A stretch of DNA of 64,000 nucleotides from a virus: the IMG/VR virus record IMGVR_UViG_3300034103_001788, positions 6,304 to 70,303 of that record, one strand, 5' to 3'. This document shows, one piece after another, positions 14,517 through 46,612 of the stretch. Both the position numbers and the translations under genes were made by a program. The stretch's first letter is position 1, and each line of letters starts with the position of its first letter. The notes under the pieces are model-generated. The model saw only the letters and a list, made by a program, of their open reading frames with translations. It ran no database searches and had not been told where the DNA came from.

Positions 14517-14849
14517 ATGGACAATTTTGACTTGAAACATTTTTTAGTAGAGAATAAAATAACTTCTAATTCTCATTTAAAAGAAATTAAAGCCATCCCT
14601 GGAAATACAGGAACTACAAGATTTATAACTTTAGAACAAATGCATTCTCTTTCAATTAATATTTTAAACCAATTAGAACAACTTCAACAAATAGTTAAAA
14701 AAATGGAAGATGGATCATCAACTGAAAATGAATTGGTAAAATTAAATACTATACCTGATAATGAATTTAGAGAATTAAGATTTATTTCAGATTATTTAAA
14801 GGAATTTTCTAGAACATTTGATGGTCTTAGAGATTATGGAATGGAATAA
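14517..14849 (+). CDS. MDNFDLK-leader protein with one tagged cargo module
   Basis: Leader MDNFDLKHFLVENKITSNSHLK then EIKAIPGNTG; TATTTATA 3 nt upstream. Confidence 0.75.
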   Translation: MDNFDLKHFLVENKITSNSHLKEIKAIPGNTGTTRFITLEQMHSLSINILNQLEQLQQIVKKMEDGSSTENELVKLNTIPDNEFRELRFISDYLKEFSRTFDGLRDYGME

Positions 14850-14860
14850 TATTTATAATT

Positions 14861-15619
14861 ATGGACAATTTTGACCTAAAGCAATTTTTAGTAAAAAACA
14901 AATTAACTGAAAATTCTCGTTTAGGTGAAATTAAAACCACCCCTGGAAATACAGGAACTACAAGATTCGTAGACCTAAAAGTTGGTGATATCATTACTCC
15001 TAAAATGTGGGACAAACAAAAATTTAAAGGTAATTATATGCCTTCACCTACAGATTATAATATTACAATACAAGACTCATATGTTATAAAAGACATGGAA
15101 TTTGACCATGAAGGGTCTGAGGAAGAAGGATTTGATGATTGGTTTGTAGATTTAAGATCAACAACTACAGGTAAACCCTATAATACAGACCCTGTTTCTT
15201 TTCCCTATAAAACACTAGAAACCCAATTTCATTTAAATAGTCTTTTAAAAGATGGATATAAAATTGTTAGTCCTGATACTTTAGAAGAAATTAAAGCCGT
15301 CCCTAAAAATACAGGAATGAAAATAGATTTATTATCTTTTATTAAACAAAACCAATATGAAATCGCTAAGAAGATGGGGGCAGTCCGTTTAGAAGATATT
15401 GAGATGGATACTTTAAATAATCCATCAGCAATAGCACGGGTTAATATTGATCTTGAGGATGAGGAGGATGAAGTAGAAGGTGGAGGAGAATATATGTATG
15501 GAGTATCATTTAGCTATCCTGAGGATGTAGATGATAATTTTAGAGGTGAAAATGGTGATGAACCAGAGGAAATAACAGTAGCAGGAAAAAAAATAATGTA
15601 TATTAATTATAATATTTAA
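14861..15619 (+). CDS. MDNFDLK-leader protein with two tagged acidic modules
   Basis: Leader plus EIKTTPGNTG (14927) and internal EIKAVPKNTG (15287). Confidence 0.75.
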   Translation: MDNFDLKQFLVKNKLTENSRLGEIKTTPGNTGTTRFVDLKVGDIITPKMWDKQKFKGNYMPSPTDYNITIQDSYVIKDMEFDHEGSEEEGFDDWFVDLRSTTTGKPYNTDPVSFPYKTLETQFHLNSLLKDGYKIVSPDTLEEIKAVPKNTGMKIDLLSFIKQNQYEIAKKMGAVRLEDIEMDTLNNPSAIARVNIDLEDEEDEVEGGGEYMYGVSFSYPEDVDDNFRGENGDEPEEITVAGKKIMYINYNI

Positions 15620-15624
15620 TAACT

Positions 15625-15909
15625 ATGGATAATTTTGACTTAAAACATTTTTTAGTAGAAAATAAATTAACTGAAAATTCTCGTTTAAAAGAAATTAAAG
15701 CCGTCCCTGGAAATACCGGGATAAAAAATGCATTAGACTTTACATTTGAAGAGGCAAAAGGTAAAATGGTTTTCATAGAAATAGATGAAGATGGGGATGA
15801 CTCTAAAGAATACATGCAAATTGATACTTTAGATGATTATAACAGCTTAAAAAATGTTATTGCTAGTTATTCCAAATCAGGAATTTTAAGTGATTATTAT
15901 ATTAACTAA
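15625..15909 (+). CDS. MDNFDLK-leader protein with one tagged acidic module
   Basis: Leader plus EIKAVPGNTG (15691). Confidence 0.75.
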   Translation: MDNFDLKHFLVENKLTENSRLKEIKAVPGNTGIKNALDFTFEEAKGKMVFIEIDEDGDDSKEYMQIDTLDDYNSLKNVIASYSKSGILSDYYIN

Positions 15910-15928
15910 TTTAATAAATATTTTAACT

Positions 15929-15955
15929 AAGGCTTGGGAAACCAAGCCTTTTTTT
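15929..15955 (+). terminator. Rho-independent terminator
   Basis: AAGGCTTGG-GAAA-CCAAGCCTT followed by T run. Confidence 0.85.
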
Positions 15956-15962
15956 GTATATT
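15934..15962 (+). promoter_or_regulatory. putative sigma70-type promoter overlapping the terminator
   Basis: TTGGGA-17 nt-TATATT; same spacing recurs at 23337, 33997 and 39433. Confidence 0.55.
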
Positions 15963-15968
15963 CACCAA

Positions 15969-16886: not shown

Positions 16887-17677
16887 TAGAACAAAATCAA
16901 AATGTAAAAAAAGACAAAAAACTTAATCGCATCGTTGAATTTACTGATGATGCTAAGCAAATTACCATTTTAGATACTCGTTATTACCAACGCAAAGAAG
17001 GCGTTTTTTACCCTTCAGTAACATATGTGCTGTCCTCTTTCCCTAAAGATAAATTTTTTGAAAGTTGGATTAAAGATGTAGGACATAACTCCGATATCAT
17101 CATGCGTAGAGCAGGAGATGAAGGTACTCAAGTACACAATGCTGTTGAGAACTTCTTAGCTGGAGAAGAAATTCAATGGTTAGATGATAATGGTAAAGCT
17201 AAATATTCTCTTGAGGTATGGAAAATGATTCTTAAATTTGCTGACTTTTGGAAAACACATAAACCAACATTGATTGCCTCTGAATGGCACTTACTTTCAG
17301 ATGAATTACAAGTAGCAGGTACAATCGATTTGGTAGTAGAATTAAATGACAAATTGTGGTTGCTAGATATTAAAACCTCAAATTCATTACATGATACTTA
17401 TGATTTGCAACTTGCTTGTTATAAACAAATGTGGAATGAATCATTCGATCAAAAGATTGAGAACGCTGGTATCTTATGGTTAAAAGCAGCTACCCGTGGT
17501 GCTGACAAATCAGGTAAGAAAATTCAAGGTGAGGGATGGCAACTTAAAGAAATGAACAACACCTTTGAAAACAACATCCAAGCATTTAAAAACTTATTTG
17601 AAATATTTAAATTCAAAAATCCAGATTTAAAACCATACTCAGAATTATTCCCTACATCTATTAAGTTAGATGTATAA
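16883..17677 (+). CDS. PD-(D/E)XK exonuclease (Cas4/RecB-like)
   Basis: YPSVT.VL, GTQVH, AGTIDL, LDIKTS, QLACY motifs. Confidence 0.85.
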   Translation: MIEQNQNVKKDKKLNRIVEFTDDAKQITILDTRYYQRKEGVFYPSVTYVLSSFPKDKFFESWIKDVGHNSDIIMRRAGDEGTQVHNAVENFLAGEEIQWLDDNGKAKYSLEVWKMILKFADFWKTHKPTLIASEWHLLSDELQVAGTIDLVVELNDKLWLLDIKTSNSLHDTYDLQLACYKQMWNESFDQKIENAGILWLKAATRGADKSGKKIQGEGWQLKEMNNTFENNIQAFKNLFEIFKFKNPDLKPYSELFPTSIKLDV

Positions 17678-17688
17678 TATTTATAAGT

Positions 17689-20190
17689 ATGGAATTATCC
17701 CTAGAAAATTTACTTAATGAACTTAATAAAGTACCCGGCGGATTAGCTAAAAATAAAACTTTAGATGATATTGCCGCTAAGCATGGAGTTGAAAAAGATA
17801 AATTAGAGAAACAACTTGAAAAAGGTATTAAAGTTGAAGCCGAACATACTACTAATAAATCAGCCGCTAAAGAAATAGCTATGGATCATCTGTTTGAAGA
17901 TCCTAAATATTACGATAAGTTATCTAAAATTGATGAAGGTACTTGTGGTTATAATGCTGATGTTAAAACAGGTAAAGAATTTAAAACTCCGGGTGGTATT
18001 AAAATGAGAAAAGACCCTTACGGGTTATCTGCTTTTGCTATTGAATTAGTTAAAGAATTTAATAATGATGTAAATGAAGTAGGAGAATTATCATCTACCC
18101 CTTATAATTATGTTAAACGTTTGGATGATTTAGAATTAGATGGAGATGAATTATTTGGTACTATAGTATATGATTTTTCGGCTGGGGATATTTTTTATGA
18201 TGTTATTTTTGAATATGATTATGATAATGAATTAGATAAAAACATTGTTAAAGTAGATTTTACCGCTAATGAGTCATATGAAATGACTAATGTAAATGAG
18301 CCATATAAAATAATGGCTACTATATTTTCAATTATCAAGAAAGAATTAGCTAAAGATATAGTTAAAAATAATTTAGATATTTTACTTTACACTCCAGCTG
18401 AAACTAAAACTAAAGGTAGTGAAGCAGTTAGATTAAGAGGTATTAATCAACGAAATGAATTATATAAAGCATTTTTTAAGAAAAATATACCTCATGTTAA
18501 AATGGAGGAAACACCGAATGAAACTCGTTTTTATTTAAAAGAAAATCAATTAAATGAGGCAGTTCGTTGTAAAGCACTCCATAACACACCCCAAAATGAA
18601 TTAATACCTTTTATCAAATCACTCACTCAGTTTATGGATAGTGATATTGAAATTCGTCCTTTACCTAAAGTAAAATTTGTTGACGATGAGGCTAATGCCT
18701 CTAAAGTATTGGGTAAAACAGCATATTATGATCCACAAAATTGCGCGATTACTTTGTATATAACCGATAGACACCCTAAGGACATACTCCGTTCGTTTGC
18801 TCATGAGATGATTCATCATATGCAAAATATGCAAGGAAGATTAGGTAATATTGGTACACAAAATGTAAATCAAGATGACAATTTAAAAGGATTAGAGGAA
18901 GAAGCGTACCAGTTAGGAAACATATTACTTCGTTGCTGGGAAAATTCTCAAGACCAACTTGATGAAATTAAACTCCAACCTAAAAATACAGGAGTAGGTA
19001 GCAAATTAAAAGTAAATTTTAAATTAGATCCTTCTTATTTTTTTTACCCTAAAGATATAAAATCAATAAATGATGTTAATGAAAGACACTTTGGTGGGTG
19101 GATAAGTTCTAAAGATTTACCTAAAATGCAAGGTATATTACATAGAGATGATTCATCTATAGTTATACTAACCATCATACTTACTAATACAGACACACCA
19201 TATGAGTATCTTGAGGCTTGGAAAAATAAACTAGATAATCTTAATATTCCATATATAGATAAAATTCTAACTCAGGGACGTAATTTTGGAATTACAGATA
19301 TAGATGTTAATAAGTATATAACTTTAAATATTGAGCAATCTACTAATGAAATTAAAGTCCAACCTAAAAACACAGGAGTGGCTGGTGCTCTAACCTCTGA
19401 AGAAAAAGAATGGATTGATAATCAAGCATATACTATTGATCGCTTTTACTCATCTAATAACACAGATTTAGATTCTGATGCTCCATTAGAATACAAATTT
19501 GTCAATAGAAAAGAGATAGAAGATGAGATACAAGGCGAATACAGGACCTCTAAAGACTTAGAACTTTTTGATTCTATTCATAGAAAATTAAAAAATAAAA
19601 TTTATACCTTTAATCGTGGGCACGATCCTAACATAAAAAAATACCCTGAAGATTATGATCTTCGAGATGCAGTAGTAAGAGCTGAATATAGCAATAATAA
19701 CCCAGAATTAACTATTACTATGTCTGATAGACTAGATGGTAGCTATGGCTCAGAATACGGTGCATTTGATAAAGATACAGGAGAATATCTTCAATATTCT
19801 GATCTGGATAAAATTGGTAAAGTTGATGAAATCAAAGTTCAACCTAAAAAAACGGGGATAAAAGGAAAAATAAATCTTGAATTTTTCCCTAATGACCTTA
19901 AAATCAAATCATATTCTGATATCTATGATTTTTTGAAACTTTCACCTAAGAATTTCCTACCAGGAATAATAAAACTTAAAAATTTCCCATTAATGTTTAC
20001 TGAAATATTTACAAATAATGAAGGTGAAATATCAATGGATTTAGAGGCTAATTCAAATTATCCTGAACGATATGATATATGGGTACAAAGATTAAAAGAT
20101 TTAGGTATTCCTTTTAAGATGAATCATCCATATATTGAGGATATAAATATAGAAAAAAATTTTAATATAGAAGTTAACCCTATAAGCTAG
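17689..20190 (+). CDS. multidomain putative head protein/polyprotein with HExxH zincin domain and three tagged modules
   Basis: GIKVE.EH...EIAMDHL.EDP.YY domain; AHEMIHHMQ at ~18800; tags at 18964, 19348 and 19828. Confidence 0.7.
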   Translation: MELSLENLLNELNKVPGGLAKNKTLDDIAAKHGVEKDKLEKQLEKGIKVEAEHTTNKSAAKEIAMDHLFEDPKYYDKLSKIDEGTCGYNADVKTGKEFKTPGGIKMRKDPYGLSAFAIELVKEFNNDVNEVGELSSTPYNYVKRLDDLELDGDELFGTIVYDFSAGDIFYDVIFEYDYDNELDKNIVKVDFTANESYEMTNVNEPYKIMATIFSIIKKELAKDIVKNNLDILLYTPAETKTKGSEAVRLRGINQRNELYKAFFKKNIPHVKMEETPNETRFYLKENQLNEAVRCKALHNTPQNELIPFIKSLTQFMDSDIEIRPLPKVKFVDDEANASKVLGKTAYYDPQNCAITLYITDRHPKDILRSFAHEMIHHMQNMQGRLGNIGTQNVNQDDNLKGLEEEAYQLGNILLRCWENSQDQLDEIKLQPKNTGVGSKLKVNFKLDPSYFFYPKDIKSINDVNERHFGGWISSKDLPKMQGILHRDDSSIVILTIILTNTDTPYEYLEAWKNKLDNLNIPYIDKILTQGRNFGITDIDVNKYITLNIEQSTNEIKVQPKNTGVAGALTSEEKEWIDNQAYTIDRFYSSNNTDLDSDAPLEYKFVNRKEIEDEIQGEYRTSKDLELFDSIHRKLKNKIYTFNRGHDPNIKKYPEDYDLRDAVVRAEYSNNNPELTITMSDRLDGSYGSEYGAFDKDTGEYLQYSDLDKIGKVDEIKVQPKKTGIKGKINLEFFPNDLKIKSYSDIYDFLKLSPKNFLPGIIKLKNFPLMFTEIFTNNEGEISMDLEANSNYPERYDIWVQRLKDLGIPFKMNHPYIEDINIEKNFNIEVNPIS

Positions 20191-20192
20191 TT

Positions 20193-21152: not shown

Positions 21153-21153
21153 G

Positions 21154-22740
21154 ATGTATTACATGCCTATATATAAACCTAAAGTAAAAAATGTTTACGA
21201 TAGTTTAACCTTACCTAGAAAAGAATCTATGATGGATGAACTAAGATTTAATAAAATGTATGCTGTATACAATTATGGGGAATTACCTGCGGATATACAA
21301 AGAGAAGTTAATAAATATATTAGTGAATTAGACATAAAAGAAAGTGAAGATGATCAATCAATGCAACGCCAATTATTTGATCAAAATCCTTTAATTATTT
21401 TTAAATCCAAAGAAGATTTAAATAAAGCAATTGAAAGTCTCCAGGACCCTAATAACTATGGATCTTATCTAAAACAATTTAGGTCACAAGACCCTAAATT
21501 AGATAAATATATTAAAGGATTACTAGAACCTCCAGGCAATCCAGGCCAACGTAAAGCATTACTTAATAAACGCAGAGAGGAATTAAATGATCCTAATTTT
21601 GAATGGACTAAAAATACTACAGATAATCAAGTACAATTAATTAAAAAGTATTTTGAAACTAAACCTAGCCGTTCTATACTTGATTTTGAAAAAGTAGATG
21701 AAAACTCATTGATGTTTTCTTTATCTAAAAATACTTTAACTAAAATAAATATAGAAAAAATAGTATCTACTGTATTAAATAACGTTGGAATAACTAATTA
21801 TAAAATGACTACTAAAAAAACTCCCAAAGACATTACTAAAGAAAACTTATTAAAGGAATTAATAAGTAAAGTTGTTTCTGAGAAAAAAATGACTCCCGCT
21901 CAAAAGAAAAAACGTGGTGAAATATATGATGCGTTAATTGATAGTGGTATGCCTTCTAAAAAAGCAGGACCTATTGCTACCTCTCAAGCAATGAAAGAAG
22001 GTTTTCCTGACTTAAATGATGATGGTGAAACTACATACGCTGATGTTTTAATAGGTCGTGGAGTTAAAGCTAAAAATGAAGATATCGACTTAGGTCACGA
22101 GGATGATGAGCCTCATATGTTAAAAGCAAATGTATATCGTATAGCTAAGTATGCTATTGAATTATACAAAATGCTTGACAAATATGACAAGATGAATGTT
22201 GAAATTGACTTTCCTGATTGGTGGCAAGAAAAAATTCATTTGACTAAAGATTATTTAGTAAAAGCTAAACATTATCTAGATTTTGAAGAAAAAGAACCTT
22301 CACTAGATGCTATGTTGGGAGAGGAAGAAAAAAAAAAAGGTAAAAACTACGTCCCTAAAACATTTACTTTCCTTAAAAGTATAAAAGATACTTTTGGTGA
22401 GAATATTAAATATTATGGTGGTAAAATGTATATTGATCCACTAGTTAAAACTGCTTTAGATAAAATAAAAAGAGGTAGAAAAACAGACAATACTACTATA
22501 GGATATTCTGATTTGAATAAATTAATTGATACTAAAATGCCTCAACAAGTTGTAATGGCCTTTAAAAAAGGATTAGAAAATTCTAAATTAGTTGATATAA
22601 ATACTAAAAAAGGTACTAGACAAATGTTACCCCTTAATTTAAGTATTACTCAAGATGAAAATGGTAATTATCTAATCAAAAATCCACACTCAGATAAAAT
22701 ATCAGAAATTAAAGTTAAACCTGAAAATACAGGAATATAA
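21154..22740 (+). CDS. multidomain putative head protein ending in a bare tag
   Basis: FPDLNDDGETTYADVL EF-hand-like motif; helical HEDDEPHML...WWQEKI domain; ends EIKVKPENTGI*. Confidence 0.65.
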   Translation: MYYMPIYKPKVKNVYDSLTLPRKESMMDELRFNKMYAVYNYGELPADIQREVNKYISELDIKESEDDQSMQRQLFDQNPLIIFKSKEDLNKAIESLQDPNNYGSYLKQFRSQDPKLDKYIKGLLEPPGNPGQRKALLNKRREELNDPNFEWTKNTTDNQVQLIKKYFETKPSRSILDFEKVDENSLMFSLSKNTLTKINIEKIVSTVLNNVGITNYKMTTKKTPKDITKENLLKELISKVVSEKKMTPAQKKKRGEIYDALIDSGMPSKKAGPIATSQAMKEGFPDLNDDGETTYADVLIGRGVKAKNEDIDLGHEDDEPHMLKANVYRIAKYAIELYKMLDKYDKMNVEIDFPDWWQEKIHLTKDYLVKAKHYLDFEEKEPSLDAMLGEEEKKKGKNYVPKTFTFLKSIKDTFGENIKYYGGKMYIDPLVKTALDKIKRGRKTDNTTIGYSDLNKLIDTKMPQQVVMAFKKGLENSKLVDINTKKGTRQMLPLNLSITQDENGNYLIKNPHSDKISEIKVKPENTGI

Positions 22741-32909: not shown

Positions 32910-32911
32910 TA

Positions 32912-33916
32912 ATGATTAAAAAATCACAAATAAAAGAAGTATTACTTAAATATATTGTTCCTTTACAAAAACAATACCCCGATTTTTACTTAGGTGGAAG
33001 TCTTGCTTTAATATTACAAAAACATATTCCTGCTCGTGATGTTAAAGATTTAGATATAATATCTCCCGTTTCTTTTGGTGATTTACATGAAACAAAATTC
33101 CCTTACAAGGGTATGGTGACTAGTAAAAAAACTTACCATATACGCGAAATAAAAACATGTTTAGATTTTTTTCACAATCCTAAAGCAAAATATGTTACCG
33201 CTAATATTCAAGGACATACTATAAAATTATCTCCTATAGATGAAATAGTTCATGCTAAAGAAAATAAAATTTGGAGTCCTGTATATAAGAACAAACAAAA
33301 AGATTTAAAACAAATTATTAAAGAAATTTTTAGTGAAATTAAAGCTCAACCCGTTAATAGATTAATTAAACCTACCAAAAAAAAAACCATAACTGATGAA
33401 CCATATATAGATATAGATACTTCTTTTATAGAAGACTACATTTTAGATTATGGTGAAATTAGTTATGATACTATTCAATTTTTTAATTTTATTAATGTTA
33501 AAGCGAATGAAAACACAATACGCGACGCCGAATATATTAATCATATTTTAAATGGAGACTATAAGCTTTATTTTAATGAAGATAAAAAAGAAATTGATTA
33601 TATTCTAACATTAAATGATCCTTTAAATATAAAAGATTATGCTCGAGATAGAGCAGAAATGTTATCTGATAATCCTGAAGACATAGACTTTCTTGCAGAA
33701 GAAATTATGTTGGCTATAGAAACTATCCAAGACAATATTCCTAAATATATTGCCGCTAAAAAAATATTAAAAGATAAGTTTACCATTATTAGTAATGATG
33801 AATTTAGTGTTATACTAACTTCTGATTCTAATGGCCATTCATTTCTTTATACTATGATAGAAAAACAAGATGGTTATTTTAATAAAAATGGAGAAATAGT
33901 AATTTATACTACATAA
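32912..33916 (+). CDS. nucleotidyltransferase-domain protein fused to a tagged acidic module
   Basis: FYLGGSLAL...RDVKDLDII Pol-beta-type GS/DxD motif; EIKAQPVN at 33335. Confidence 0.65.
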   Translation: MIKKSQIKEVLLKYIVPLQKQYPDFYLGGSLALILQKHIPARDVKDLDIISPVSFGDLHETKFPYKGMVTSKKTYHIREIKTCLDFFHNPKAKYVTANIQGHTIKLSPIDEIVHAKENKIWSPVYKNKQKDLKQIIKEIFSEIKAQPVNRLIKPTKKKTITDEPYIDIDTSFIEDYILDYGEISYDTIQFFNFINVKANENTIRDAEYINHILNGDYKLYFNEDKKEIDYILTLNDPLNIKDYARDRAEMLSDNPEDIDFLAEEIMLAIETIQDNIPKYIAAKKILKDKFTIISNDEFSVILTSDSNGHSFLYTMIEKQDGYFNKNGEIVIYTT

Positions 33917-35688: not shown

Positions 35689-36687
35689 ATGGATAACTTT
35701 GATTTACACAAGTATTTAAGAAATAACCCTTTATTAACTGAGTCAGTTGATAATAAACTAACCAAAAAGAAAGTAAAAGAAATGGTTAGAGAGATGGCTA
35801 AAGGAACTATAAATACTCCTGATGAAACTAACTTAAATAAAGCTATTGGAAATGCTCCTAACGTAGTAGCAAAATTATCTTTTATTAATCAACCTACGGA
35901 ATTAGATGGCGCTTTTAAAGTTGCATTAGACTTTTCAGAACTTAAAAATGTTTCTAAATCTACAGTAATAGCTGCCCTTAAACGAGCTATGGATGAGTTA
36001 TCTCCTGATTCTCAAGCTATTAATACTGTTGGTGATCCTATTGGACCTAATTCTAAAAACTTTAACACAGCACCTTCTCAAAGACCTGATAAAACCTATG
36101 ATGTAGGTAATATGAAGCCTATCCAAACTATGAAAGAAGAAATGGTTGATGAAATGGCTTTAGATGAAATGGCTCGTATTGCTAAACCTTCTAAATTAGC
36201 TGATGATTGGGAAGAAAAAATGGCTAACTTACCTGACCGTTTTAAGAAAAGTACTCGTTTCGATCGTGTAATTAAGTATTTCCAAAAATATAAAGATAAA
36301 ATTGGTCAACCTATTAACCCTAATACTGATCCTCTTACAGCAAAAGCAATTGATTTTTATGGTACTTTAGCCCATATTGCCGACGAGGAATTCCAATCAT
36401 CAGATACAGCTAGTGCTGCACCTATCGTTTCTGCTTTGAAAGATGCTGGTGTTGTAGTTTCAGGTGATTTCGTAACTGAACCAGCTAAATACAGTAAAGA
36501 ACCATCAGTACCTGGTGCTAAAGGAAGACCTAAAACCGAAACCGGTTACTTCCAAAATGCTATGGCTAAGTTTAAAGAAGGCAACTATGAATTTTCTCCT
36601 GAAGAGCAAAACGCTTTAGAAAACATGGTTAAAGCATTACAAGCTGCCTTGACTAAAAAACCTGAGCCAAAAGCTAAAAAGAAGTAA
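35689..36687 (+). CDS. MDNFDL-leader putative head protein
   Basis: MDNFDLHKYLRNNPLLTE; internal VDEMALDEMAR. Confidence 0.7.
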   Translation: MDNFDLHKYLRNNPLLTESVDNKLTKKKVKEMVREMAKGTINTPDETNLNKAIGNAPNVVAKLSFINQPTELDGAFKVALDFSELKNVSKSTVIAALKRAMDELSPDSQAINTVGDPIGPNSKNFNTAPSQRPDKTYDVGNMKPIQTMKEEMVDEMALDEMARIAKPSKLADDWEEKMANLPDRFKKSTRFDRVIKYFQKYKDKIGQPINPNTDPLTAKAIDFYGTLAHIADEEFQSSDTASAAPIVSALKDAGVVVSGDFVTEPAKYSKEPSVPGAKGRPKTETGYFQNAMAKFKEGNYEFSPEEQNALENMVKALQAALTKKPEPKAKKK

Positions 36688-36691: not shown

Positions 36692-37615
36692 ATGGATTCA
36701 TTTGATTTAAAGCAATTTCTAGTTAAGAACAAACTTACTGAAAACAGCAAGTTAAATGACGTAAAAATCTACCCTGGAAATACAGGACAATTTCATAGTT
36801 TGAACCCGTTTACCTTATTAACTAAGAAAACATTATTTGCTGATTTCATCTATCGTGTAGGTGGTAACAATAGTGACGATATAAATTCAAGATTTGCTAG
36901 AAGTATAAGCGAACTTTTAAATTTATTAAAACGTACAAATACACTCCAGGGAACCCATACAATAGATGATATATTTGAATATGAAGAAATGAATGATGTT
37001 GAGGATGGAGATGAATCTTATGCGAGCTCTGCAGAATCATTAGCATTTTTTCAAAAATTACCCCTTCATTTTAAATTTATTGTTACACATAATATTAATG
37101 GTTATAATGAAAGTTTTGAGATTACTAAAATAGGATCTAATAGTTTTACTACAGAAGAAATAGATAATGAATTAGATGAAATTACTATCAATCCTCAAAG
37201 TACGGGAATAAAGTTAGGAGGAGATTCACCGTTTTTTTCTTTTGTAAAAAATAATAAACAAGAAATAGCATCTCTTAATCCTGTATTTACTGATATCATA
37301 ATGAATAGTGGAGAGGAAAAACTTGATAGAAAATCAATATACTTAGAAGACATAGCATATCCTGATTATACTTATGAAGACTTTATCAAAGATTGGAAAT
37401 TATATAATCCTGAAGTAATAGTATTAGGAGACGAATTAATGTCTGTTTTTGTTGTAAATATGTCTCTTCCTTTAAAGTTTGCTAATGTTTTAACATCAAA
37501 TGATTATACATTTTTTGGTACTAGACCTAATTCTGAAAATGCACTTAAACCTTACACTGTAGCTAATAAAAAAATATATATAACTTGGGGTATTCCTGAC
37601 CCAGGATCAAATTAG
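36692..37615 (+). CDS. MDSFDLK-leader protein with two tagged modules
   Basis: DVKIYPGNTG (36758) and EITINPQSTG (37178). Confidence 0.75.
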   Translation: MDSFDLKQFLVKNKLTENSKLNDVKIYPGNTGQFHSLNPFTLLTKKTLFADFIYRVGGNNSDDINSRFARSISELLNLLKRTNTLQGTHTIDDIFEYEEMNDVEDGDESYASSAESLAFFQKLPLHFKFIVTHNINGYNESFEITKIGSNSFTTEEIDNELDEITINPQSTGIKLGGDSPFFSFVKNNKQEIASLNPVFTDIIMNSGEEKLDRKSIYLEDIAYPDYTYEDFIKDWKLYNPEVIVLGDELMSVFVVNMSLPLKFANVLTSNDYTFFGTRPNSENALKPYTVANKKIYITWGIPDPGSN

Positions 37616-37621: not shown

Positions 37622-38683
37622 ATGGATAACTTTGACTTAAAGCAATTTTTAATTGAGAACAAACTTACTGAAAACAGCAAGGTAAATGAAGCTTGGACTA
37701 AAGAACGTAGAGAACAAGATCCTGAAGGTTATGCTAAGTACTTAGAAAAAGCTAAACAAGCTCAAAAACAATACTACGAAAAAAATCGAGAAAAAGCTAA
37801 ACAATACTACGAAAAAAATCGAGAAAAAAATCGAGAGTACGCTAAACAATCTGCTAAACAATACTACGAAAAAAACCCAGAAAAAGTTAAACAACGTACT
37901 AACCAGTATAATAAACAACATAGAGAAAAACTTAAACAAGCTGCTAAGCAATACAAAGAAAAAAACCTAGAAAAATTAAAACAAGCAGCTAACCAGTATG
38001 CTAAACAACATAGAAAAAAATTAAAACAAGATCCTGAAGCCTATGCTAAGTATTTAGAAAAAGCTAACCAGTATAATAAACAACATAGAGAAAAATTAAA
38101 ACAAGATCCTGAAGTATATGCTAAGTATTTAGATTATCAAAAACAATATGCTAAACAAAACAAAGAAAAATATGATTCTTATGTAAAACAATCATCTGAT
38201 TTTTTCTATAATACTATCACTAACAACCCAAGTCCTGAATTAAAAAACATTAAAGATAACCCTAAACTTTTAACTAAACTTTACTCTGAGTTTATTAAAA
38301 AAGCTAAACAACAATATAAATCTAAAAATAAAGACTTTTCATTTATGGTTACTGAAAACAGCAAGTTAAATGAAATTAAAGCTACTCCTAAAAATACGGG
38401 GGTAGGTAAACAAAGATTTTCACTAGAAAAATGGGAAAATTTAGGCGAAGATTTTGAGTACGATAGTGATGATGATATCTATATTTACTACGGTATATTA
38501 TTTTTTAATGATCCTGAACTTAAAGAACTAAGCTCCGAAATTCAGTACAATGACTATACAGAGGAAGAATGGGAAACTATAGAGGAAAAAATAGAAACTT
38601 TAATAGAAATTCTAAATAAAAATAATATAGAGTGGAGTCAACGTACAACTAGTAATTGGATTAACTTTACTATCTATTATTAA
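37622..38683 (+). CDS. MDNFDLK-leader protein with K/Q/Y/E repeat insertion and one tagged acidic module
   Basis: KQYYEKNREK-type repeats; second TENSKLNE then EIKATPKNTG (38372). Confidence 0.75.
   Translation: MDNFDLKQFLIENKLTENSKVNEAWTKERREQDPEGYAKYLEKAKQAQKQYYEKNREKAKQYYEKNREKNREYAKQSAKQYYEKNPEKVKQRTNQYNKQHREKLKQAAKQYKEKNLEKLKQAANQYAKQHRKKLKQDPEAYAKYLEKANQYNKQHREKLKQDPEVYAKYLDYQKQYAKQNKEKYDSYVKQSSDFFYNTITNNPSPELKNIKDNPKLLTKLYSEFIKKAKQQYKSKNKDFSFMVTENSKLNEIKATPKNTGVGKQRFSLEKWENLGEDFEYDSDDDIYIYYGILFFNDPELKELSSEIQYNDYTEEEWETIEEKIETLIEILNKNNIEWSQRTTSNWINFTIYY
37715..38170 (+). repeat. imperfect coding tandem repeats (KQYYEKNREK / QDPE.YAKYL)
   Basis: Repeated aaacaatactacgaaaaaaa and acaagatcctgaag...tatgctaagta units. 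Confidence 0.8.
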
Positions 38684-38693
38684 AAGATAAAAT

Positions 38694-38993
38694 ATGAAAC
38701 TTCAACCAGGTAATACCGGCTTATCTAATTTAAATAGACCCGTTGATATTGTATCTCCTGGGGAAGATGGTGAAGATGGTTTTTATTATGTTGATTTAGA
38801 TAAATTAAAAAAAGAATTACAATTTAAATACTTTAAAGATTTATTTGATTCACCTAAAACATTTAATGATGGTTTAATTAATTATTTAAATGATATTATA
38901 GATTTTGATGGGCCTGACAGTTATAAAAATATGACTTTAAAAGAATTAATAACAGATTTTAAAGCATGGCTTCAAAATTTTACTACAGATTAG
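38694..38993 (+). CDS. acidic module starting directly with the tag (MKLQPGNTG)
   Basis: 99 aa; paralogous to the module of 39039..39398. Confidence 0.65.
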   Translation: MKLQPGNTGLSNLNRPVDIVSPGEDGEDGFYYVDLDKLKKELQFKYFKDLFDSPKTFNDGLINYLNDIIDFDGPDSYKNMTLKELITDFKAWLQNFTTD

Positions 38994-39038: not shown

Positions 39039-39398
39039 ATGGATAATTTTGATTTAAAGCAATTTTTAGTTGAGAATAAATTAACTGAAAATTCTCGTTT
39101 AATTGAGATTAAAGCTATCCCCCGAAATACAGTAATAGACAAATTTAAAAATTGGTCACCTTATAAAAACATGAGCAATAAAAAATATTATGAAAGTTTT
39201 AAAAAATTTGTTAGATTTAATTTAAAACAACACAACGTTATAGATGAACACATTGAAATATATTTAGATGAAATTTTGAAGGCGGATGATGTAAAAGCAT
39301 ATGAAGGAATTAGTGATGAAAATTTATATAAAGATTTTCTTGAATATAAAAATGATCAAATTGAGCAAGATGAGGATTTATATGATTTCGATTTTTAA
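39039..39398 (+). CDS. MDNFDLK-leader protein with one tagged module
   Basis: Leader plus EIKAIPRNTV (39105). Confidence 0.75.
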   Translation: MDNFDLKQFLVENKLTENSRLIEIKAIPRNTVIDKFKNWSPYKNMSNKKYYESFKKFVRFNLKQHNVIDEHIEIYLDEILKADDVKAYEGISDENLYKDFLEYKNDQIEQDEDLYDFDF

Positions 39399-40907: not shown

Positions 40908-41238
40908 TACCCAATGTTGTGTACCTTGTGCTACTTTAAAAAAAGCACTACTGGTTAAAACCGAAAGAGATTATTTAAAGAATCAAATTGGAATCACTCG
41001 TGATTCTGTAACTCTTTTAAATGTTATTGTATCTCAACAAGATACATTGATTAAAAATAAAAACAATCAAATTGATTTATATAAAAAGAATGAATTGAAT
41101 TACGTTCAAATCATTGATAATAAAAATAAACAAGTTGAGTTATATGATAAAGCGTTAAAAACAGCTAAAAAAGGTATAAAAGTAGCATATGGTGTTGCTG
41201 TAGTATCTATTATTAGTGGTTTGCTAGTTGCACTATGA
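40834..41238 (+). CDS. putative secreted/membrane spanin-partner-like protein
   Basis: Signal peptide ending SFANS-Q, coiled coil, C-terminal TM VAYGVAVVSIISGLLVAL. Confidence 0.45.
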   Translation: MKNIIVLTLCLILSSFANSQTLSIDTQCCVPCATLKKALLVKTERDYLKNQIGITRDSVTLLNVIVSQQDTLIKNKNNQIDLYKKNELNYVQIIDNKNKQVELYDKALKTAKKGIKVAYGVAVVSIISGLLVAL

Positions 41239-42827
41239 GTGAAAATGTAGACTATAGAGAAATTATCAAGCAGGAATACATTAAATGTGTTCAGGATCCT
41301 GCTCATTTCATGAAAAAATACTGCCACATCCAGCATCCGCAACGTGGTAGAGTATTGTTTAATTTATATCCCTTCCAATCTAAGGTATTACATTTATGGA
41401 GAGATAATCCATATTCTATTATCTTAAAATCAAGACAGTTAGGTATATCAACATTAGCCGCAGGTTATTCTTTATGGTTAATGTTATTTCATAAAGATAA
41501 AAACGTTCTTTGTATTGCAACTAAGCAGGATACTGCTAAAAACATGGTTACAAAAGTACGTTTTATGTATGATAGTTTACCTTCATGGTTAAAAGAAAAA
41601 GATAAACCACTAGAAGATAGTAAATTAACATTAAGATTAAACAATGGTTCCCAAATCAAAGCAACATCAGCAAGTTCAGATGCAGGTCGATCAGAAGCCG
41701 TTTCTATGCTGCTTGTAGATGAGGCAGCGTTCATTGAAAATATTGGAGAAATATGGGCATCAGCACAACAAACACTAGCCACAGGTGGTGGAGCAATTGT
41801 ACTTTCAACACCTTATGGAACTGGAAACTGGTTCCATCAAACATGGACTCGAGCAGAAGCAAAGGAAAATGATTTTCTTCCTATTAGATTACCCTGGTTC
41901 GTTCACCCTGAACGAGATGAGGCATGGAGGAAAAAACAAGATGAATTACTAGGTGATCCTAGATTAGCAGCACAGGAATGTGATTGCGATTTTAGTACTT
42001 CAGGTGAAGTAGTATTTTACCCTGAATGGTTAGATTTCATTAAAGAAACAACAATACGAGAACCACTCGAAAGAAGAGGAGTTGACCAAAATTTATGGAT
42101 ATGGGAACCTGCAGACTATACAAGAGATTATATGGTAGTAGCAGACGTAGCTAGAGGTGATGGTAAAGACTTTTCAACTTTTCACATTATGGATGTAGCA
42201 ACTAATGTACAAGTTGCTGAATATAAAGGACAAATGTCTACTAAAGAATTTGGATATTTTCTAGTAGGTATTGCTACTGAATACAATCAGGCTTTATTGG
42301 TGGTTGAAAACTCATCTATTGGGTGGTCAACCATAGAAGCTATTTTGGAAAGAGGATATAGAAATTTGTATTATTCTCCCAAAGGAGGTGATACTTTAAC
42401 AGTTGAGTCGTATTTTCAAAGATATGAAAATAATCCTAATCTAACTCCTGGTTTTACTATGTCATTAAAATCACGCCCCCTAGTTATAAATAAATTTAGA
42501 GAATACATCGGAGATCGTTCTGTAATAATCCAATCAAAACGGTTATTAGAGGAAATGAAAGTGTTTATCTGGAAAAATGGACGAGCTGAAGCTCAAGGAG
42601 GATACAACGATGACTTAGTAATGGCTTTTGGTATTGGAATGTATCTAAGAGATACATCATTACGTTTTCAACAACAATCACAAGACTTAACAAGAGCCTC
42701 TCTTAATTCGTTTAAAGCAACCCAAATGAATACCTCAGGAGTATACTCACCTAAAACAGCTTATGGTGGTAATCCCTGGAGTATGGATATAGGAACTGAT
42801 AACGAAGATATTACTTGGCTTCTCTAA
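41235..42827 (+). CDS. terL: terminase large subunit (T4 gp17-like)
   Basis: LYPFQ, KSRQLGIST Walker A, LLVDEAAF Walker B, STPYG, ADVARGDGKD nuclease, NDDLVMA. Confidence 0.95.
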   Translation: MSENVDYREIIKQEYIKCVQDPAHFMKKYCHIQHPQRGRVLFNLYPFQSKVLHLWRDNPYSIILKSRQLGISTLAAGYSLWLMLFHKDKNVLCIATKQDTAKNMVTKVRFMYDSLPSWLKEKDKPLEDSKLTLRLNNGSQIKATSASSDAGRSEAVSMLLVDEAAFIENIGEIWASAQQTLATGGGAIVLSTPYGTGNWFHQTWTRAEAKENDFLPIRLPWFVHPERDEAWRKKQDELLGDPRLAAQECDCDFSTSGEVVFYPEWLDFIKETTIREPLERRGVDQNLWIWEPADYTRDYMVVADVARGDGKDFSTFHIMDVATNVQVAEYKGQMSTKEFGYFLVGIATEYNQALLVVENSSIGWSTIEAILERGYRNLYYSPKGGDTLTVESYFQRYENNPNLTPGFTMSLKSRPLVINKFREYIGDRSVIIQSKRLLEEMKVFIWKNGRAEAQGGYNDDLVMAFGIGMYLRDTSLRFQQQSQDLTRASLNSFKATQMNTSGVYSPKTAYGGNPWSMDIGTDNEDITWLL

Positions 42828-42846
42828 ATATTTATAACAAACACAA

Positions 42847-44718
42847 ATGGCAGATACCAGTTTATTCACGCGACTTAAACGATTATTTTCAACGGATGTT
42901 ATCGTAAGAAACATTGGTGGAGATGAACTTAAGATTATAGATGTTAACAAAATTCAACAAGCAGGACAGGTTGAAACCAACTCATTAATTGATCGATTTA
43001 CTCGATTACACTTAACAGGAGCAGCCCCTATTTATAACCCTGCTCTTAATTATCAAACATTAAGAACTCAACTATACTCTGATTATGAGGCTATGGATAC
43101 AGATTCTATTATTGCCTCTACATTAGATATTATTTGTGATGAATGTACTTTAAAGAACGATATGGGAGAAGTACTTCAAATTCGTTCTAGTGATGATGAT
43201 ATTCAAAAAATTCTCTACAATTTATTCTATGATGTATTAAATATTGAATTTAACTTATGGGCATGGATTCGCCAAATGTGTAAGTATGGTGATTTTTTCT
43301 TAAAGCTAGAAATTGCTGAAAAATTTGGTGTATACAATATTATTCCCTATACCGCATATAATATTAGCCGAGAAGAAGGATACGATGTTAAAAACCCGGC
43401 ATCAGTAAGATTTAAATTTGACCCCGATGGATTATCAGGCGGTGGCTCTACTGCTTCAGGATATGCATATACAAACAGGATAGATAATGCTATCTATTTT
43501 GATAACTATGAAATAGCTCACTTCCGTTTATTAACAGATGTTAACTATTTACCTTATGGTCGTTCATATATTGAACCTGCGCGTAAATCGTATAAACAGA
43601 TGGTATTAATGGAGGACGCGATGCTTGTACATCGTATTGTTAGAGCGCCTGAAAAGCGCGTTTTCTACATGAATGTTGGTAATATTCCACCAAATGAGAT
43701 AGATGCATTTATGGAAAAAACAGTTTCTAAAATGAAACGTACTCCATACATTGATCCTCAAACAGGCCAATACAACTTAAAATTCAACATGCAAAACATG
43801 ATGGAGGATTTTTATATTCCTGTTCGTGGTAATGATGCAACAACCAAAATTGAAACTACAAAAGGATTAGAATACGATGGTATTCAAGATGTTACATATT
43901 TAAGAGATAAAATGATTGCTGCTCTTAAAGTACCTAAAGCATTCTTTGGATATGAAAAAGATTTAACAGGTAAAGCAACATTAGCGGCTGAAGATATTCG
44001 TTTTGCTCGTACAATTGAACGTATTCAAAAGATTATTTTATCTGAATTATATAAAATTGCTTTAGTACATTTATATTCTCAAGGATACAATAATGAAGGG
44101 TTAACTAATTTTGAATTAGGATTAACTACACCTTCTATTATTTATGATCAAGAAAGAATTAACTTACTTAAAGAGAAAGTAGAATTAGCTCGTAACATTA
44201 TTGATACTAAACTTTTACCTACAGACTGGATTTATGATAATATTTTCCACTTTAGTGAAGATGAATATGATAGCTATAGAGATTTAATGCGCGAAGATAT
44301 GAAACGCACATTCCGTTTAACTCAGCTTGAAAGTGAAGGTAACGATCCTATTGAAACTGGTAAATCATATGGTACACCACACGACTTAGCTGCTTTATAT
44401 GGTACGGGTCGTTATGAAGCATCTAAAAATGTTCCTGGTGGATATAATGAGGATGAGCCATTATTAGGACGCCCTAAAGAAAAAGTATCAGATATTAATA
44501 CTCAAAATAATGCTTTGGGTAGGGATAGATTAGGAGTTAAAGCTACAAAGGTAGATGACCAGGAAAACTATAGTCCTACCCGACCACAGGTATCATATGA
44601 GGCTAAAACAGCATTATTAAAAAATAAATCATTATTTGAAAGTTTAAATAAAAAATTATCATTTGATGATGAACAAAGAGCTGCCTCTTTATTAGATGAA
44701 TCTAAAATTAAGGAATAA
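42847..44718 (+). CDS. portal protein (T4 gp20-like)
   Basis: LMEDAMLVHRIVRAPEKRVFY..VGN, MEDFYIPVRG, ALKVPK, EDIRF. Confidence 0.95.
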   Translation: MADTSLFTRLKRLFSTDVIVRNIGGDELKIIDVNKIQQAGQVETNSLIDRFTRLHLTGAAPIYNPALNYQTLRTQLYSDYEAMDTDSIIASTLDIICDECTLKNDMGEVLQIRSSDDDIQKILYNLFYDVLNIEFNLWAWIRQMCKYGDFFLKLEIAEKFGVYNIIPYTAYNISREEGYDVKNPASVRFKFDPDGLSGGGSTASGYAYTNRIDNAIYFDNYEIAHFRLLTDVNYLPYGRSYIEPARKSYKQMVLMEDAMLVHRIVRAPEKRVFYMNVGNIPPNEIDAFMEKTVSKMKRTPYIDPQTGQYNLKFNMQNMMEDFYIPVRGNDATTKIETTKGLEYDGIQDVTYLRDKMIAALKVPKAFFGYEKDLTGKATLAAEDIRFARTIERIQKIILSELYKIALVHLYSQGYNNEGLTNFELGLTTPSIIYDQERINLLKEKVELARNIIDTKLLPTDWIYDNIFHFSEDEYDSYRDLMREDMKRTFRLTQLESEGNDPIETGKSYGTPHDLAALYGTGRYEASKNVPGGYNEDEPLLGRPKEKVSDINTQNNALGRDRLGVKATKVDDQENYSPTRPQVSYEAKTALLKNKSLFESLNKKLSFDDEQRAASLLDESKIKE

Positions 44719-44742
44719 TTTTTTTAATCATATTTATAATAA

Positions 44743-45603
44743 ATGACTAAGCTTAAGCATAGCAAATATAAAAATTCTGGGTTAATTTTTGAATTGCTTA
44801 TTAGACAGGTAACCGCAGATACTATTTCGGGAAAACAATCACCCGCGCTTGATATTATTAAAAAGTATTTTCTTAAAAGTGAATTAAGTAAAGAATATAA
44901 ATTATACGAATCATTGTTAAAAAAATTACCTTTAACTGAATCAACTGCTAATATTGTTATTAATACTATTTTAGAAACTTCTAAAAAATTAAATCGAGGT
45001 AATCTACGTAGAGAAAAATATAACTTAATTAAAGAAATTCGTGATAATTATAATTTAGATGAATTTTTTAAAATTAAATTACCTAACTATAAGGCATATG
45101 CTGCTTTATATTCATTAATGGAAGTTTACAATAATGATAACTTGGTTAATCCTGATGCTATTATTACTAATAAAGTAACATTACTTGAAATTTTAACCAC
45201 ATCTAAAATTAATAAAAAAGAGGTTAAAGACGAGGTAATTGAGGAATTTAAAAAATACGATAAAGATTTACGTATTTTAACTTATCGTATACTGTTAGAA
45301 AAATTCAACGATAAGTACGATGGTTTAAATGAAAAACAAAAAGCCGTACTAAAGCAATTCATTACTGAAGTAGATTCAACACCTAAACTAAAAGAATTTT
45401 ATAATAACCAAATCAGCGAAATTAAAACTGAATTAAAAACATTAATTAAATCAGTTGATGATAAAGTTACAGTAATTAAATTAAATGAAATAGTAAATAT
45501 TATTTCTGAATTATCTAAAGAATCTTCAATTAATAACGAGGATATAGTTAATCTTTTACAATATTATCAATTGATCGATGAAATTAGAACAGTTAGTAAA
45601 TAA
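44743..45603 (+). CDS. head-cluster hypothetical protein
   Basis: KHSKYKNSGLIFELLIRQ; directly downstream of the portal. Confidence 0.6.
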   Translation: MTKLKHSKYKNSGLIFELLIRQVTADTISGKQSPALDIIKKYFLKSELSKEYKLYESLLKKLPLTESTANIVINTILETSKKLNRGNLRREKYNLIKEIRDNYNLDEFFKIKLPNYKAYAALYSLMEVYNNDNLVNPDAIITNKVTLLEILTTSKINKKEVKDEVIEEFKKYDKDLRILTYRILLEKFNDKYDGLNEKQKAVLKQFITEVDSTPKLKEFYNNQISEIKTELKTLIKSVDDKVTVIKLNEIVNIISELSKESSINNEDIVNLLQYYQLIDEIRTVSK

Positions 45604-45892
45604 GATATTAAGTGAGGTAGAACCTACTCCTCGTAAGTTTACTGTTGAACCTGGAGAAGTTGACCCTGAAGCTCGTAGTGTTGTATCTAAAGTAACATAT
45701 ACTCCTAACTTTGAAAAACTTCTTAAAGATGCTTTGCAATTAGAGTCTACCTCTAGAGCAGTAATGTTACAAGCTGAAGAAGATCAAGAATTTGAAGATA
45801 TTTTTAAAGAAATACAATACATTAAAAATAGAATTAGAGGTCATCTCCGCAACAATTATCGTAAAGAATACGAAAAAATGAAAGGCAAATGA
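45578..45892 (+). CDS. small putative head protein
   Basis: MKLEQLVNKILSE leader. Confidence 0.6.
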   Translation: MKLEQLVNKILSEVEPTPRKFTVEPGEVDPEARSVVSKVTYTPNFEKLLKDALQLESTSRAVMLQAEEDQEFEDIFKEIQYIKNRIRGHLRNNYRKEYEKMKGK

Positions 45893-46143
45893 AAAAGAAA
45901 CAACTTAAAGAAATTATAAGAAAAGTTGTTACTGAAATATCTGCCACTGGAGGCGGAGTAGCAGGAGCAGGTATGTCTACTGGAGCTGGAGAGCAATATG
46001 CTACTCCATTTGCTTTTAACCCTAATAAAAAAGCTAAAGGTACTTCCCGTAATTACTACTTAAAGATGGGTTGGAAACCTGTTAATAAGGAACAGATGAG
46101 AAAACAGGCCAAAGGTATGGAATATAAAGACTTGTGGAAATAA
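45889..46143 (+). CDS. small putative head protein
   Basis: MKKKQLKEIIRKVVTE leader; GEQYATPFAF. Confidence 0.65.
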   Translation: MKKKQLKEIIRKVVTEISATGGGVAGAGMSTGAGEQYATPFAFNPNKKAKGTSRNYYLKMGWKPVNKEQMRKQAKGMEYKDLWK

Positions 46144-46159
46144 TACATATTTATAACAT

Positions 46160-46612
46160 ATGAATAACAAACGCTACCTAAAAGTAAAAATGCTAAACCT
46201 CCAACAAGAGGTACAAGCACTTTTATCTAAAGGTGAAAATTTAGGACCTGGTGTTTTTGACGCTATTGCAGACGATATAGAAAAGTTAACAACTCAAATT
46301 ATTGACTTACGTAAAAAATCTCAACCTACAACAGCAGCTGATACTGAATCTCCTGAAGCTGAAGTTAAAGAATCTACCCCTCTTAGCTTAGAAGGTTTAT
46401 ATAAAGAAATTAAAGCTATACCAGGTAGTACGGGATTAGGGAATAAAGATAATGAAGATGTAGAAATGTATTATTTTGTAGATGAAGATGGTAATGTTAA
46501 TAAATTAGGTAAATTAAATCCTGATGAACTTAAAAAAGCCGAAGCTGAATTACAAAATGATGGATTTATAATGTCTGAAGAAGATTTTAGAGAATTAAAT
46601 AATATAGAATAA
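46160..46612 (+). CDS. head-cluster protein with one tagged acidic module
   Basis: EIKAIPGSTG at 46406; TATTTATA 4 nt upstream. Confidence 0.65.
   Translation: MNNKRYLKVKMLNLQQEVQALLSKGENLGPGVFDAIADDIEKLTTQIIDLRKKSQPTTAADTESPEAEVKESTPLSLEGLYKEIKAIPGSTGLGNKDNEDVEMYYFVDEDGNVNKLGKLNPDELKKAEAELQNDGFIMSEEDFRELNNIE

Follow-up and report, generated by a model that had tools for sequence, protein, structure and literature searches.

This locus raises the question of what a ten-residue peptide, E↓IKxxPxNTG (the arrow marks a putative cut), does in 17 copies spread over 12 open reading frames (ORFs) on the + strand of a single viral contig. The window, i.e., the whole stretch of 64,000 nucleotides (nt) analyzed here, covers bases 6304-70303 of one 70,303-base virus record (IMGVR_UViG_3300034103_001788, ~30% G+C). 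A previous sequence-only reading regarded the peptide, hereafter the tag, as the boundary of plug-in modules in capsid-packaged polyproteins that are cut by a prohead protease. We find that the tags, in full [hydrophobic]-x-E↓IKxxPxNTG, are real, peptide-constrained junctions at which modules are exchanged, a conclusion in which we are much more confident than in the mechanism of packaging, cleavage, and recombination that is weighed further below.

Tags as junctions of module exchange

The tagged ORFs and their tags are given below in window coordinates, where breaks are points at which collinearity with related contigs ends.

14517..14849, +, ORF of 110 amino acids (aa): leader (aa 1-23), tag, 87-aa acidic module A
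14583..14612, +, tag HLKE↓IKAIPGNTG
14861..15619, +, ORF of 252 aa: leader, tag, module B, tag, module C
14927..14956, +, tag RLGE↓IKTTPGNTG
15287..15316, +, internal tag TLEE↓IKAVPKNTG; collinearity break with L082 at 15280
15625..15909, +, ORF of 94 aa: leader, tag, module D
15691..15720, +, tag RLKE↓IKAVPGNTG; breaks at 15684 and 15719
17689..20190, +, ORF of 833 aa: zincin-like N-part with DUF5661 and HEMIHH (aa 1-426), modules X, Y, and Z, three tags between
18964..18993, +, tag QLDE↓IKLQPKNTG
19348..19377, +, tag STNE↓IKVQPKNTG, P3 = T
19828..19857, +, tag KVDE↓IKVQPKKTG
21154..22740, +, ORF of 528 aa, tag at extreme C-terminus (10-residue stub); L082 has a further ~100-aa module
22705..22734, +, tag KISE↓IKVKPENTG, then I and stop; break at 22735
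30897..32909, +, ORF of 670 aa: N-domain (365 aa), tag, basic module W, tag, module Y2
31989..32018, +, tag VFTE↓IKVQPKNTG
32481..32510, +, tag NVDE↓IKVQPGNTG; left end of an 836-nt tag-to-tag indel against L112, break at 32497
32912..33916, +, ORF of 334 aa: 142-aa basic N-part, degenerate tag, 192-aa acidic module
33335..33364, +, degenerate tag IFSE↓IKAQPVNRL; right end of the 836-nt indel, break at 33334
36692..37615, +, ORF of 307 aa: leader, tag (Asp at P1), module, degenerate tag, module
36758..36787, +, tag KLND↓VKIYPGNTG; break with L112 at 36766
37178..37207, +, degenerate tag ELDE↓ITINPQSTG
37622..38683, +, ORF of 353 aa: leader ending KVNE without tag, basic repeats, truncated leader (TENSKLNE), tag, acidic module
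38372..38401, +, tag KLNE↓IKATPKNTG; break at 38400
38694..38993, +, ORF of 99 aa starting MKLQPGNTG (tag as encoded N-terminus); break at 38688
39039..39398, +, ORF of 119 aa: leader, degenerate tag IKAIPRNTV, module
39105..39134, +, tag RLIE↓IKAIPRNTV
46160..46612, +, ORF of 150 aa in the head cluster: 83-aa N-part, tag, 67-aa acidic module (replaced in L105)
46406..46435, +, tag LYKE↓IKAIPGSTG

All 17 copies listed by the sequence-only reading are present, with M replacing I at 38694. The strict peptide pattern [IV]K..P.[NKS]TG, run over all 70,303 bases of the contig, matches 13 times on the + strand and never on the - strand, while a profile of the tag gives 18 copies there, all on the + strand and one of them upstream of the window (G000:2736). 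When the window was scanned with the DNA pattern back-translated from the tag, 10 exact matches were obtained, vs. a mean of 0.00 for 100 shuffles that preserve dinucleotides. The part of the contig ahead of the window has a leader+tag ORF of its own (G000:2679-2765, ..NSRLNE↓IKVVPGNVG). Two properties described earlier were recovered, namely the preceding hydrophobic-x-E (P3 across the 16 copies having a P side: L9, V2, F2, I1, Y1, T1, i.e., 15/16 hydrophobic or aromatic; P1: E15, D1) and the mostly acidic character of the segments after the tag (isoelectric point, pI, ≤5.0 in 13/17; the rest have pI 6.9, 6.8, and 9.4 or are a 10-residue stub). The description of the tagged ORFs as otherwise unrelated was wrong: six have a common 23-residue leader and one module type recurs, module Y2 of ORF 30897 being a paralogue of module Y of ORF 17689 (50% identity).

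The junction character of the tag emerged when four tag-bearing stretches of the window were compared with a closely related contig (L082/L093 and L112; flanks 92-96% identical). In this comparison, which covered the tag-bearing stretches alone and does not give a genome-wide rate, 9/9 collinearity breaks were located ≤15 nt from a tag, and a tenth (an extra leader ORF) at an ORF boundary. The window order leader-A, leader-B-C, leader-D is represented in the relative by leader-C, leader-B'-D, and the extra leader ORF, while an 836-nt piece (32498-33333) with a tag at each end is missing in L112. A relative continues with a 305-nt module after the tag of ORF 21154, where the window ORF ends one codon past the tag, and in a relative an unrelated module of similar length takes the place of the one that lies between the tags at 38372 and 38694. 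The homologue of ORF 46160 in L105 shares 85.5% identity before the tag and 35.8% after it. Residues 400-833 of ORF 17689 recovered 37 homologues of 500-975 residues (four of them visibly truncated contig ends) with 98 tags, in which E (98/98), P (98/98), G (97/98), and T (94/98) are nearly invariant. These homologues have 1-4 modules in 11 architectures, among them N-X-Y-Z (16), N-X-Y (6), N-Y-X-Z (3), N-Y (3), and N-X-Y-Y-Z (2), every boundary being at a tag, and some of them join the N-domain of ORF 30897 to modules of ORF 17689. The breaks and the tag-bounded architectures bear out the earlier claim that the tag delimits plug-in modules.

Selection on the peptide is indicated by the tag always lying in the frame of its ORF, by the three x positions being free at all codon positions, and by a diverged lineage that retains E↓A[IKR]IxPxx[TI]G. 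The conserved codons are nevertheless more alike than the codon usage of the window predicts: Thr is encoded by ACA (10), ACG (4), and ACC (2), with ACT in 0/16 (background.49), Gly by GGA (11), GGG (3), and GGC (1), with GGT in 0/15 (background.50), and Ile by ATT in 14/15 (background.56), while the summed same-codon statistic was reached in 0/5000 simulations from window codon usage. Synonymous codons do vary, as the sequence-only reading had observed, but less than usage would allow. That reading would have taken synonymous conservation as the mark of a DNA recombination site, and this half of the expectation is seen (codons alike, tags coinciding with breakpoints) together with the peptide constraint. 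The likeness of codons and the breakpoints at the tags therefore point to a DNA-level role beside the peptide-level role; the likeness fits, likely though unproven, a common descent combined with recurrent recombination or gene conversion at the tags. The 17 tags gave no sign of a hairpin (mean minimum free energy -7.2 in 70-nt windows vs. -8.3 for 300 random windows), and an attC-like (integron cassette) or hairpin element was ruled out, given that no nucleic-acid structure was found there.

The tag is confined to a narrow lineage. A tag expression detected no true tag in 80 loci related by their large terminase (TerL; L002-L081, 73-95% TerL identity), nor in a 47-kb stretch of Flavobacterium phage vB_FspM_immuto (hereafter immuto), and outside L082 it matched only a TITVxPxNTV repeat, which is unrelated to the tag and present three times in the immuto stretch. 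Scanning all of IMG/VR with the exact DNA pattern retrieved 31 stretches, of which 10 combined 30-33% G+C with a leader or the context of ORF 46160, and the other 21 had single matches in unrelated contexts; the ten tag-lineage stretches are L090, L092, L093, L098, L099, L100, L105, L108, L112, and L115. In a complete relative of 170 kb only two leader matches, both weak, and no tag were found, as opposed to ten matches in a 29-kb fragment of the tagged lineage, and the lineage of the window has therefore expanded both leader and tag. Of the named phages, the nearest are Microcystis phage Mel-JY01 and immuto, the latter aligning to 30% of an 8-kb query at ~69% nucleotide identity, and a tblastn search with ORFs 21154 and 30897 against 50,697 phage records retrieved only immuto (16% coverage) and one unannotated metagenomic phage. 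The phage group is common in environmental data, since a TerL search of IMG/VR yielded at least 599 confirmed relatives.

The leader and the head gene cluster

The leader, MDNFDLKQFLVENKLTENSRLxE, is common to six tagged ORFs (14517, 14861, 15625, 36692, 37622, and 39039), and the contig has seven strong copies (the six window ORFs and one upstream ORF) as well as a weak one. The tag follows the leader directly in the leader ORFs and the window leaders end in L-x-E (once L-x-D), ORF 37622 (V-N-E) being the exception in both respects. One window ORF has a leader-like start without a tag:

35689..36687, +, ORF of 332 aa, weak leader-like start MDNFDLHKYL.., without tag

When a leader+tag profile (A1) was scored against 1.84 billion representative proteins, 734 clusters (50% identity) were found at E≤1e-3 and 29 at E≤1e-10. 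The best 150 of the 734 clusters were fetched, of which 129 match the leader expression with 159 instances (117 N-terminal, 31 internal, and 11 C-terminal). Among these instances, the first Glu lies 3-4 residues past the leader core in 145/159, the residue two positions before this Glu is L113, I24, V5, or M3 of 157 (L/I/V/M in 145/157), P1' is diverse (A30, E27, I24, N15, G12, and others), and the tag follows the leader in only 10/159. Internal leaders are mostly preceded by [LIV]-x-E within ~10 residues (e.g., TLNE↓NKMQDFDLK; 42 upstream stretches, inspected by eye). Such bracketing of a conserved peptide by hydrophobic-x-Glu is how a propeptide cut out by a Glu-specific protease would be expected to look.

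The leader is also found in immuto, for instance on immuto26A_195. An acidic, coiled-coil-rich family (L001:32632-33633, which is immuto26A_194, together with P0071, P0073, P0080, and P0083) has the leader at both ends; the annotation of immuto26A_194 as cob(I)alamin adenosyltransferase looks doubtful, and no homologue of this family (P0080 type, immuto26A_194) was found in the window.

A candidate for such a protease is encoded in the window by the head cluster, which follows the T4 gene order (portal, five small ORFs, S77 protease, acidic scaffold-like ORF, Gp23-family capsid) expected of a T4-like contig, with tagged ORF 46160 inside the cluster between portal and protease:

41235..42827, +, large terminase
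42847..44718, +, portal, gp20-like
47468..48085, +, prohead protease of the Peptidase_S77 / T4 gp21 family, the presumed enzyme
48288..49388, +, scaffold-like ORF, very acidic, in the gp22 position (assigned from position and composition only)
49426..51063, +, major capsid protein, Gp23 family (6.6e-72); Pfam match from aa 78

The gp21-like protease claimed at 47468 was confirmed by the profile searches (phrog_207, 3.7e-57; Pfam Peptidase_S77, 1.1e-28, 100.5 bits vs. a cut-off of 27). The capsid protein has a predicted propeptide site without the tag (..QLVNE59↓SS..), its position being set from where the Pfam Gp23 match begins (residue 78) and from the analogy to gp23. A small head-cluster ORF of 84 aa (45889-46143) contains TGGGVAGAGMSTGAGEQYATPFAF, closely like the predicted mature N-terminus of the capsid protein, SGAGVAGGSFTTGAGEQWAGVALP (capsid 49426-51063), and both this ORF and its motif are kept in relatives (L006:14350-14667; L099:4550-4819).

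Cleavage, recombination, or recognition

The explanation that we favor, and to which we give about an even chance, is that the tags are junction cassettes which provide a prohead-protease site in head-targeted cargo of an uncultured T4-like phage and whose DNA doubles as microhomology for module exchange. The leader, which appears to resemble the T4 capsid targeting sequence (CTS), would take the protein into the prohead as the CTS does in T4. The S77 (gp21-type) protease would then cleave behind the Glu of [hydrophobic]-x-E, which would free the protein of its leader and split it into modules at internal tags, with 60-190-residue, mostly acidic modules starting IKxxPxNTG as the products. The T4 gp21 consensus is (L/I)-x-E, and by its residues the E↓I junction seems to fit a site of this type (hydrophobic P3 15/16, Glu P1 15/16). 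The remaining part is shown by the genome comparison, with the DNA of the tag serving as short homology for the in-frame insertion, deletion, replacement, and reordering of whole modules, and close relatives therefore carry different module sets. As a guess, the P' residues IKxxPxNTG might ensure that the junction stays extended and exposed and is cut efficiently in front of any module, and might be kept alike through their use in recombination; we do not think that they are a sorting or ejection signal. The polyprotein interpretation of the sequence-only reading is in this way partly supported, by the fit of the site, the S77 protease, the leader, and the exchange, but not in the common N-terminus or the signal role. 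The same N-terminus is not gained by every module, as seen for ORF 21154 (10-residue stub) and the first site of ORF 37622 (without tag), perhaps also at 36758 (Asp at P1), and the degenerate copies (NRL, NTV, ITINPQSTG) are further exceptions. A signal role for IKxxPxNTG is unsupported, with the motif lacking at the predicted capsid site and at 149/159 leader-adjacent sites in relatives.

A number of observations weigh against this explanation. We infer packaging and cleavage by analogy, and the same capsid and leader-adjacent sites without IKxxPxNTG indicate that the protease can evidently do without the P' motif, so that cleavage does not explain why the P' side is conserved. Acidic proteins are not obvious companions of packed DNA, and of the eight ORFs with leader or tag that were searched, none is tied to known internal head proteins by a Pfam or PHROG family. 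The tagged ORFs do not form a late block, being scattered among genes for a primase (15954), exonucleases (16883, 23381), a Dps-like protein (20787), and kinase-like proteins; the ip and alt genes of T4 are likewise scattered. T4-type late promoter boxes were not enriched upstream of the ORFs. For the T4-type late promoter TATAAATA, the + strand has 10 matches (1/10 intergenic) and the - strand 25, and the motif is therefore of no help in timing the genes. At one junction P3 is Thr and is kept so in relatives (STNE or PTNE), and the copy at 36758 has Asp at P1, a residue that blocks processing of the T4 CTS according to the available text of PMC9026906.

Structure predictions bear on whether the tags lie within or between domains. 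The AlphaFold2 model of ORF 17689 (14 sequences) is poor overall (mean predicted local distance difference test, pLDDT, 57.7), with modules X (440-549), Y (566-706), and Z (728-829) folded at pLDDT ~70-88 and 3/3 tags in coil of pLDDT<50 (283-437, 552-564, 708-725). In the model of ORF 14861 (mean 58.5), 2/2 tags are in segments of pLDDT<50 (19-34, 139-155) and the leader is a short helix (residues 6-12). The 5/5 modelled tags would accordingly be linkers outside domain folds, which is indicative and not proof. Co-folding of the S77 protease with a 38-residue leader+tag alignment scored 0.00 vs. a mark of 0.32 and, being without controls, speaks neither for nor against binding.

Function searches on the modules returned little. 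Pfam and PHROGs found only DUF5661 and phrog_33731 (unknown function) on the tagged ORFs, and PDB sequence searches gave 0 and 3 insignificant matches. With the ORF 17689 model, Foldseek had no PDB match at E≤0.001, weak GNAT-like rows being its best, and BFVD gave 35 matches at E≤0.001, all with low template modelling (TM) scores and to long uncharacterised multidomain phage proteins. An Atlas search with the N-domain of ORF 30897 stayed below 0.9, with an LPD23 lead at 0.86, under the reliable range. ORF 17689 has DUF5661 above the cut-off (3.1e-13), and its zincin-like region gave SprT-like (0.048) and DUF6647 (3.8e-4) matches, both below it. The 142-residue pre-tag part of ORF 32912 (32912-33337) has G-G-S and, 15 residues on, D-L-D, by eye like a pol-beta-type nucleotidyltransferase motif; Pfam gave no match for this part and phrog_33731 matched at 7.2e-5. 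In ORF 37622, ~225 residues of basic KQYYEKNREK-type repeats (pI 9.7) stand between leader and tag, the sole strongly basic segment of that size among the tagged ORFs.

If the tag were never cut, it could be a flexible linker kept mainly for in-frame DNA recombination, as in exon shuffling, the proteins remaining intact beads on a string whether packaged or not. The 9/9 breakpoints at tags, the excess likeness of codons at the conserved positions, the relic tag without a following module in ORF 21154, and the linker position of the 5/5 modelled tags would all suit this alternative. We still consider it rather unlikely: only ~20/30 bases are fixed and these are broken up by free codons, which makes poor homology for recombination alone, the conserved positions track reading frame and amino acids (with E, P, and TG retained in the diverged lineage), and a DNA junction needs neither an invariant Glu nor a hydrophobic P3, whereas the same site ends the leader in 145/159 instances. 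Cleavage might also be the work of another protease, either the HExxH zincin-like domain of ORF 17689 or a host enzyme, before packaging or after injection. HEMIHH is placed ~50 residues before the first tag of an ORF that also has DUF5661 and the sub-threshold matches given above, and Ile at P1' would suit a thermolysin-like zincin. The BFVD matches of the ORF 17689 model are to long multidomain phage proteins (low TM), and autoprocessing of polyvalent proteins by embedded zincins was predicted by Iyer et al. (PMC5512222, in the text available). However, the domain is found in just 1/12 tagged ORFs and matches no curated peptidase family at cut-off, a larger protein of immuto has the same zincin region, within the 47-kb stretch in which no tag was found, and the P-side pattern also ends the leader in hundreds of clusters; we regard this as improbable.

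No more probable, in our view, is that the tag acts as a short linear motif, uncut or as a new N-terminus, which binds one common partner (scaffold, capsid interior, portal, or a host protein) and is itself the sorting or ejection signal proposed in the sequence-only reading. The conservation of the P' side exceeds what a gp21-type site needs, and ORF 38694 starts with MKLQPGNTG, so that the motif is kept at an encoded N-terminus with no cut needed. This start is either a hint of a motif role at the N-terminus or a remnant, possibly a recent one, and relic or degenerate copies exist (NRL, NTV, the 10-residue stub). The tag is also absent from the 80 TerL-related loci that share the head genes and from the immuto stretch, so it is not needed for head assembly or ejection in the phage group. 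A bolder version combines leader and tag into a plug-in system for injected effectors, in which the leader would load any protein into the prohead and the tag would be the standard connector, with modules added, dropped, or reordered in frame and released with a common N-terminus that is recognised at ejection or in the host. We think this unlikely; if it were true, the effectors that uncultured T4-like phages inject could be read straight from sequence by searching for leader and tag.

Known systems and further observations

Among described systems, the closest parallel to the junction cassettes is the T4 set of CTS, internal proteins IPI-III, and Alt, where likewise a short N-terminal peptide ending in hydrophobic-x-Glu is found on otherwise unrelated proteins, an S77 protease belongs to the T4-ordered head cluster, and the cargo set varies between relatives. 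According to the available text of PMC9026906, a 10-residue CTS at the N-terminus of an internal protein suffices for packaging and is removed by gp21; the text gives 'LIE-9', residues 8 and 10 of the CTS as processing residues, and cleavage C-terminal to Glu. CTS-like sequences on diverse other proteins of T4 relatives are reported in the available text of PMC9026906 and PMC5694885. In contrast to T4, the leader here has 23 residues instead of 10-20 and is also internal and C-terminal, the cargo consists of multi-module chains, the modules are mostly acidic where the T4 internal proteins are basic, and a nine-residue P' motif is conserved where 'very few apparent determinants' are given for gp21 cleavage (the last two T4 properties from the available text of PMC9026906). 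Homology to the T4 internal proteins, Alt, or CTS was not found via Pfam/PHROG for 8 ORFs, with no direct comparison with T4 sequences made.

Polyvalent proteins, with 2 to 15 distinct domains per phage polypeptide (Iyer et al. 2017, PMC5512222, available text), share with the tagged ORFs several unrelated domains per polypeptide, predicted travel with the DNA, and proteolytic release. ORF 17689 has a zincin-like HExxH region, DUF5661, and an N-part followed by three separately modelled modules. Here, by contrast, the junctions are one defined repeated peptide, the likely protease is the prohead protease in trans, and most tagged ORFs have 1-3 small modules without recognisable enzyme domains; DUF5661 left aside, no curated polyvalent-protein domain was found at cut-off. 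The giant phages phiKZ, 201phi2-1, and SPN3US likewise have many head or ejection proteins that are cleaved behind the Glu of a short motif; their propeptides contain several such sites, and paralogues have identical N-termini (PMC5694885, available text). Their propeptides, however, often exceed 100 residues and have a small P3 residue (AXE, SXE), and neither a conserved P' block nor module shuffling at the sites is described in the text available of PMC5694885.

In its working the system appears to resemble the T4 CTS and internal proteins, and its concept overlaps with that of polyvalent proteins, but in sequence it is a member of neither. What is new is the leader, which is long, very widespread, and used internally as well as at either terminus, the arrangement of cargo as multi-module chains, and the connector of one lineage, a fixed peptide whose P' block is conserved and which doubles as the breakpoint of module exchange. 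No description of such a leader/tag system was found in the literature (open-access text only), nor were a virion-protein study of immuto or a virion proteome for the phage group.

If the leader is a capsid targeting peptide, the 734 clusters in aquatic T4-like phages would be candidate head-packaged, injected proteins, a repertoire that is otherwise invisible in metagenomes and is the site of anti-defence functions such as that of T4 IPI. The tag shows how cargo may diversify, as a fixed, putatively protease-cuttable connector makes any module swappable in frame, with the exchange visible between genomes 92-96% identical. Leader and cut-and-join peptide could also be parts for loading foreign proteins into phage heads, in the way that the T4 CTS is used.

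The window also has two very large fibre-like ORFs, at 57482-60622 and 60670-63999 (3' open), the latter with long collagen-like runs. In L084, a more distant relative, a second recurrent N-terminal peptide (..LRMQ.LAG.ITES.Y) is found on several ORFs (8786, 13117, 17560), and the C-terminal end of the scaffold-like protein of the window (48288-49388), ..FKKLAGLI, is similar to it.

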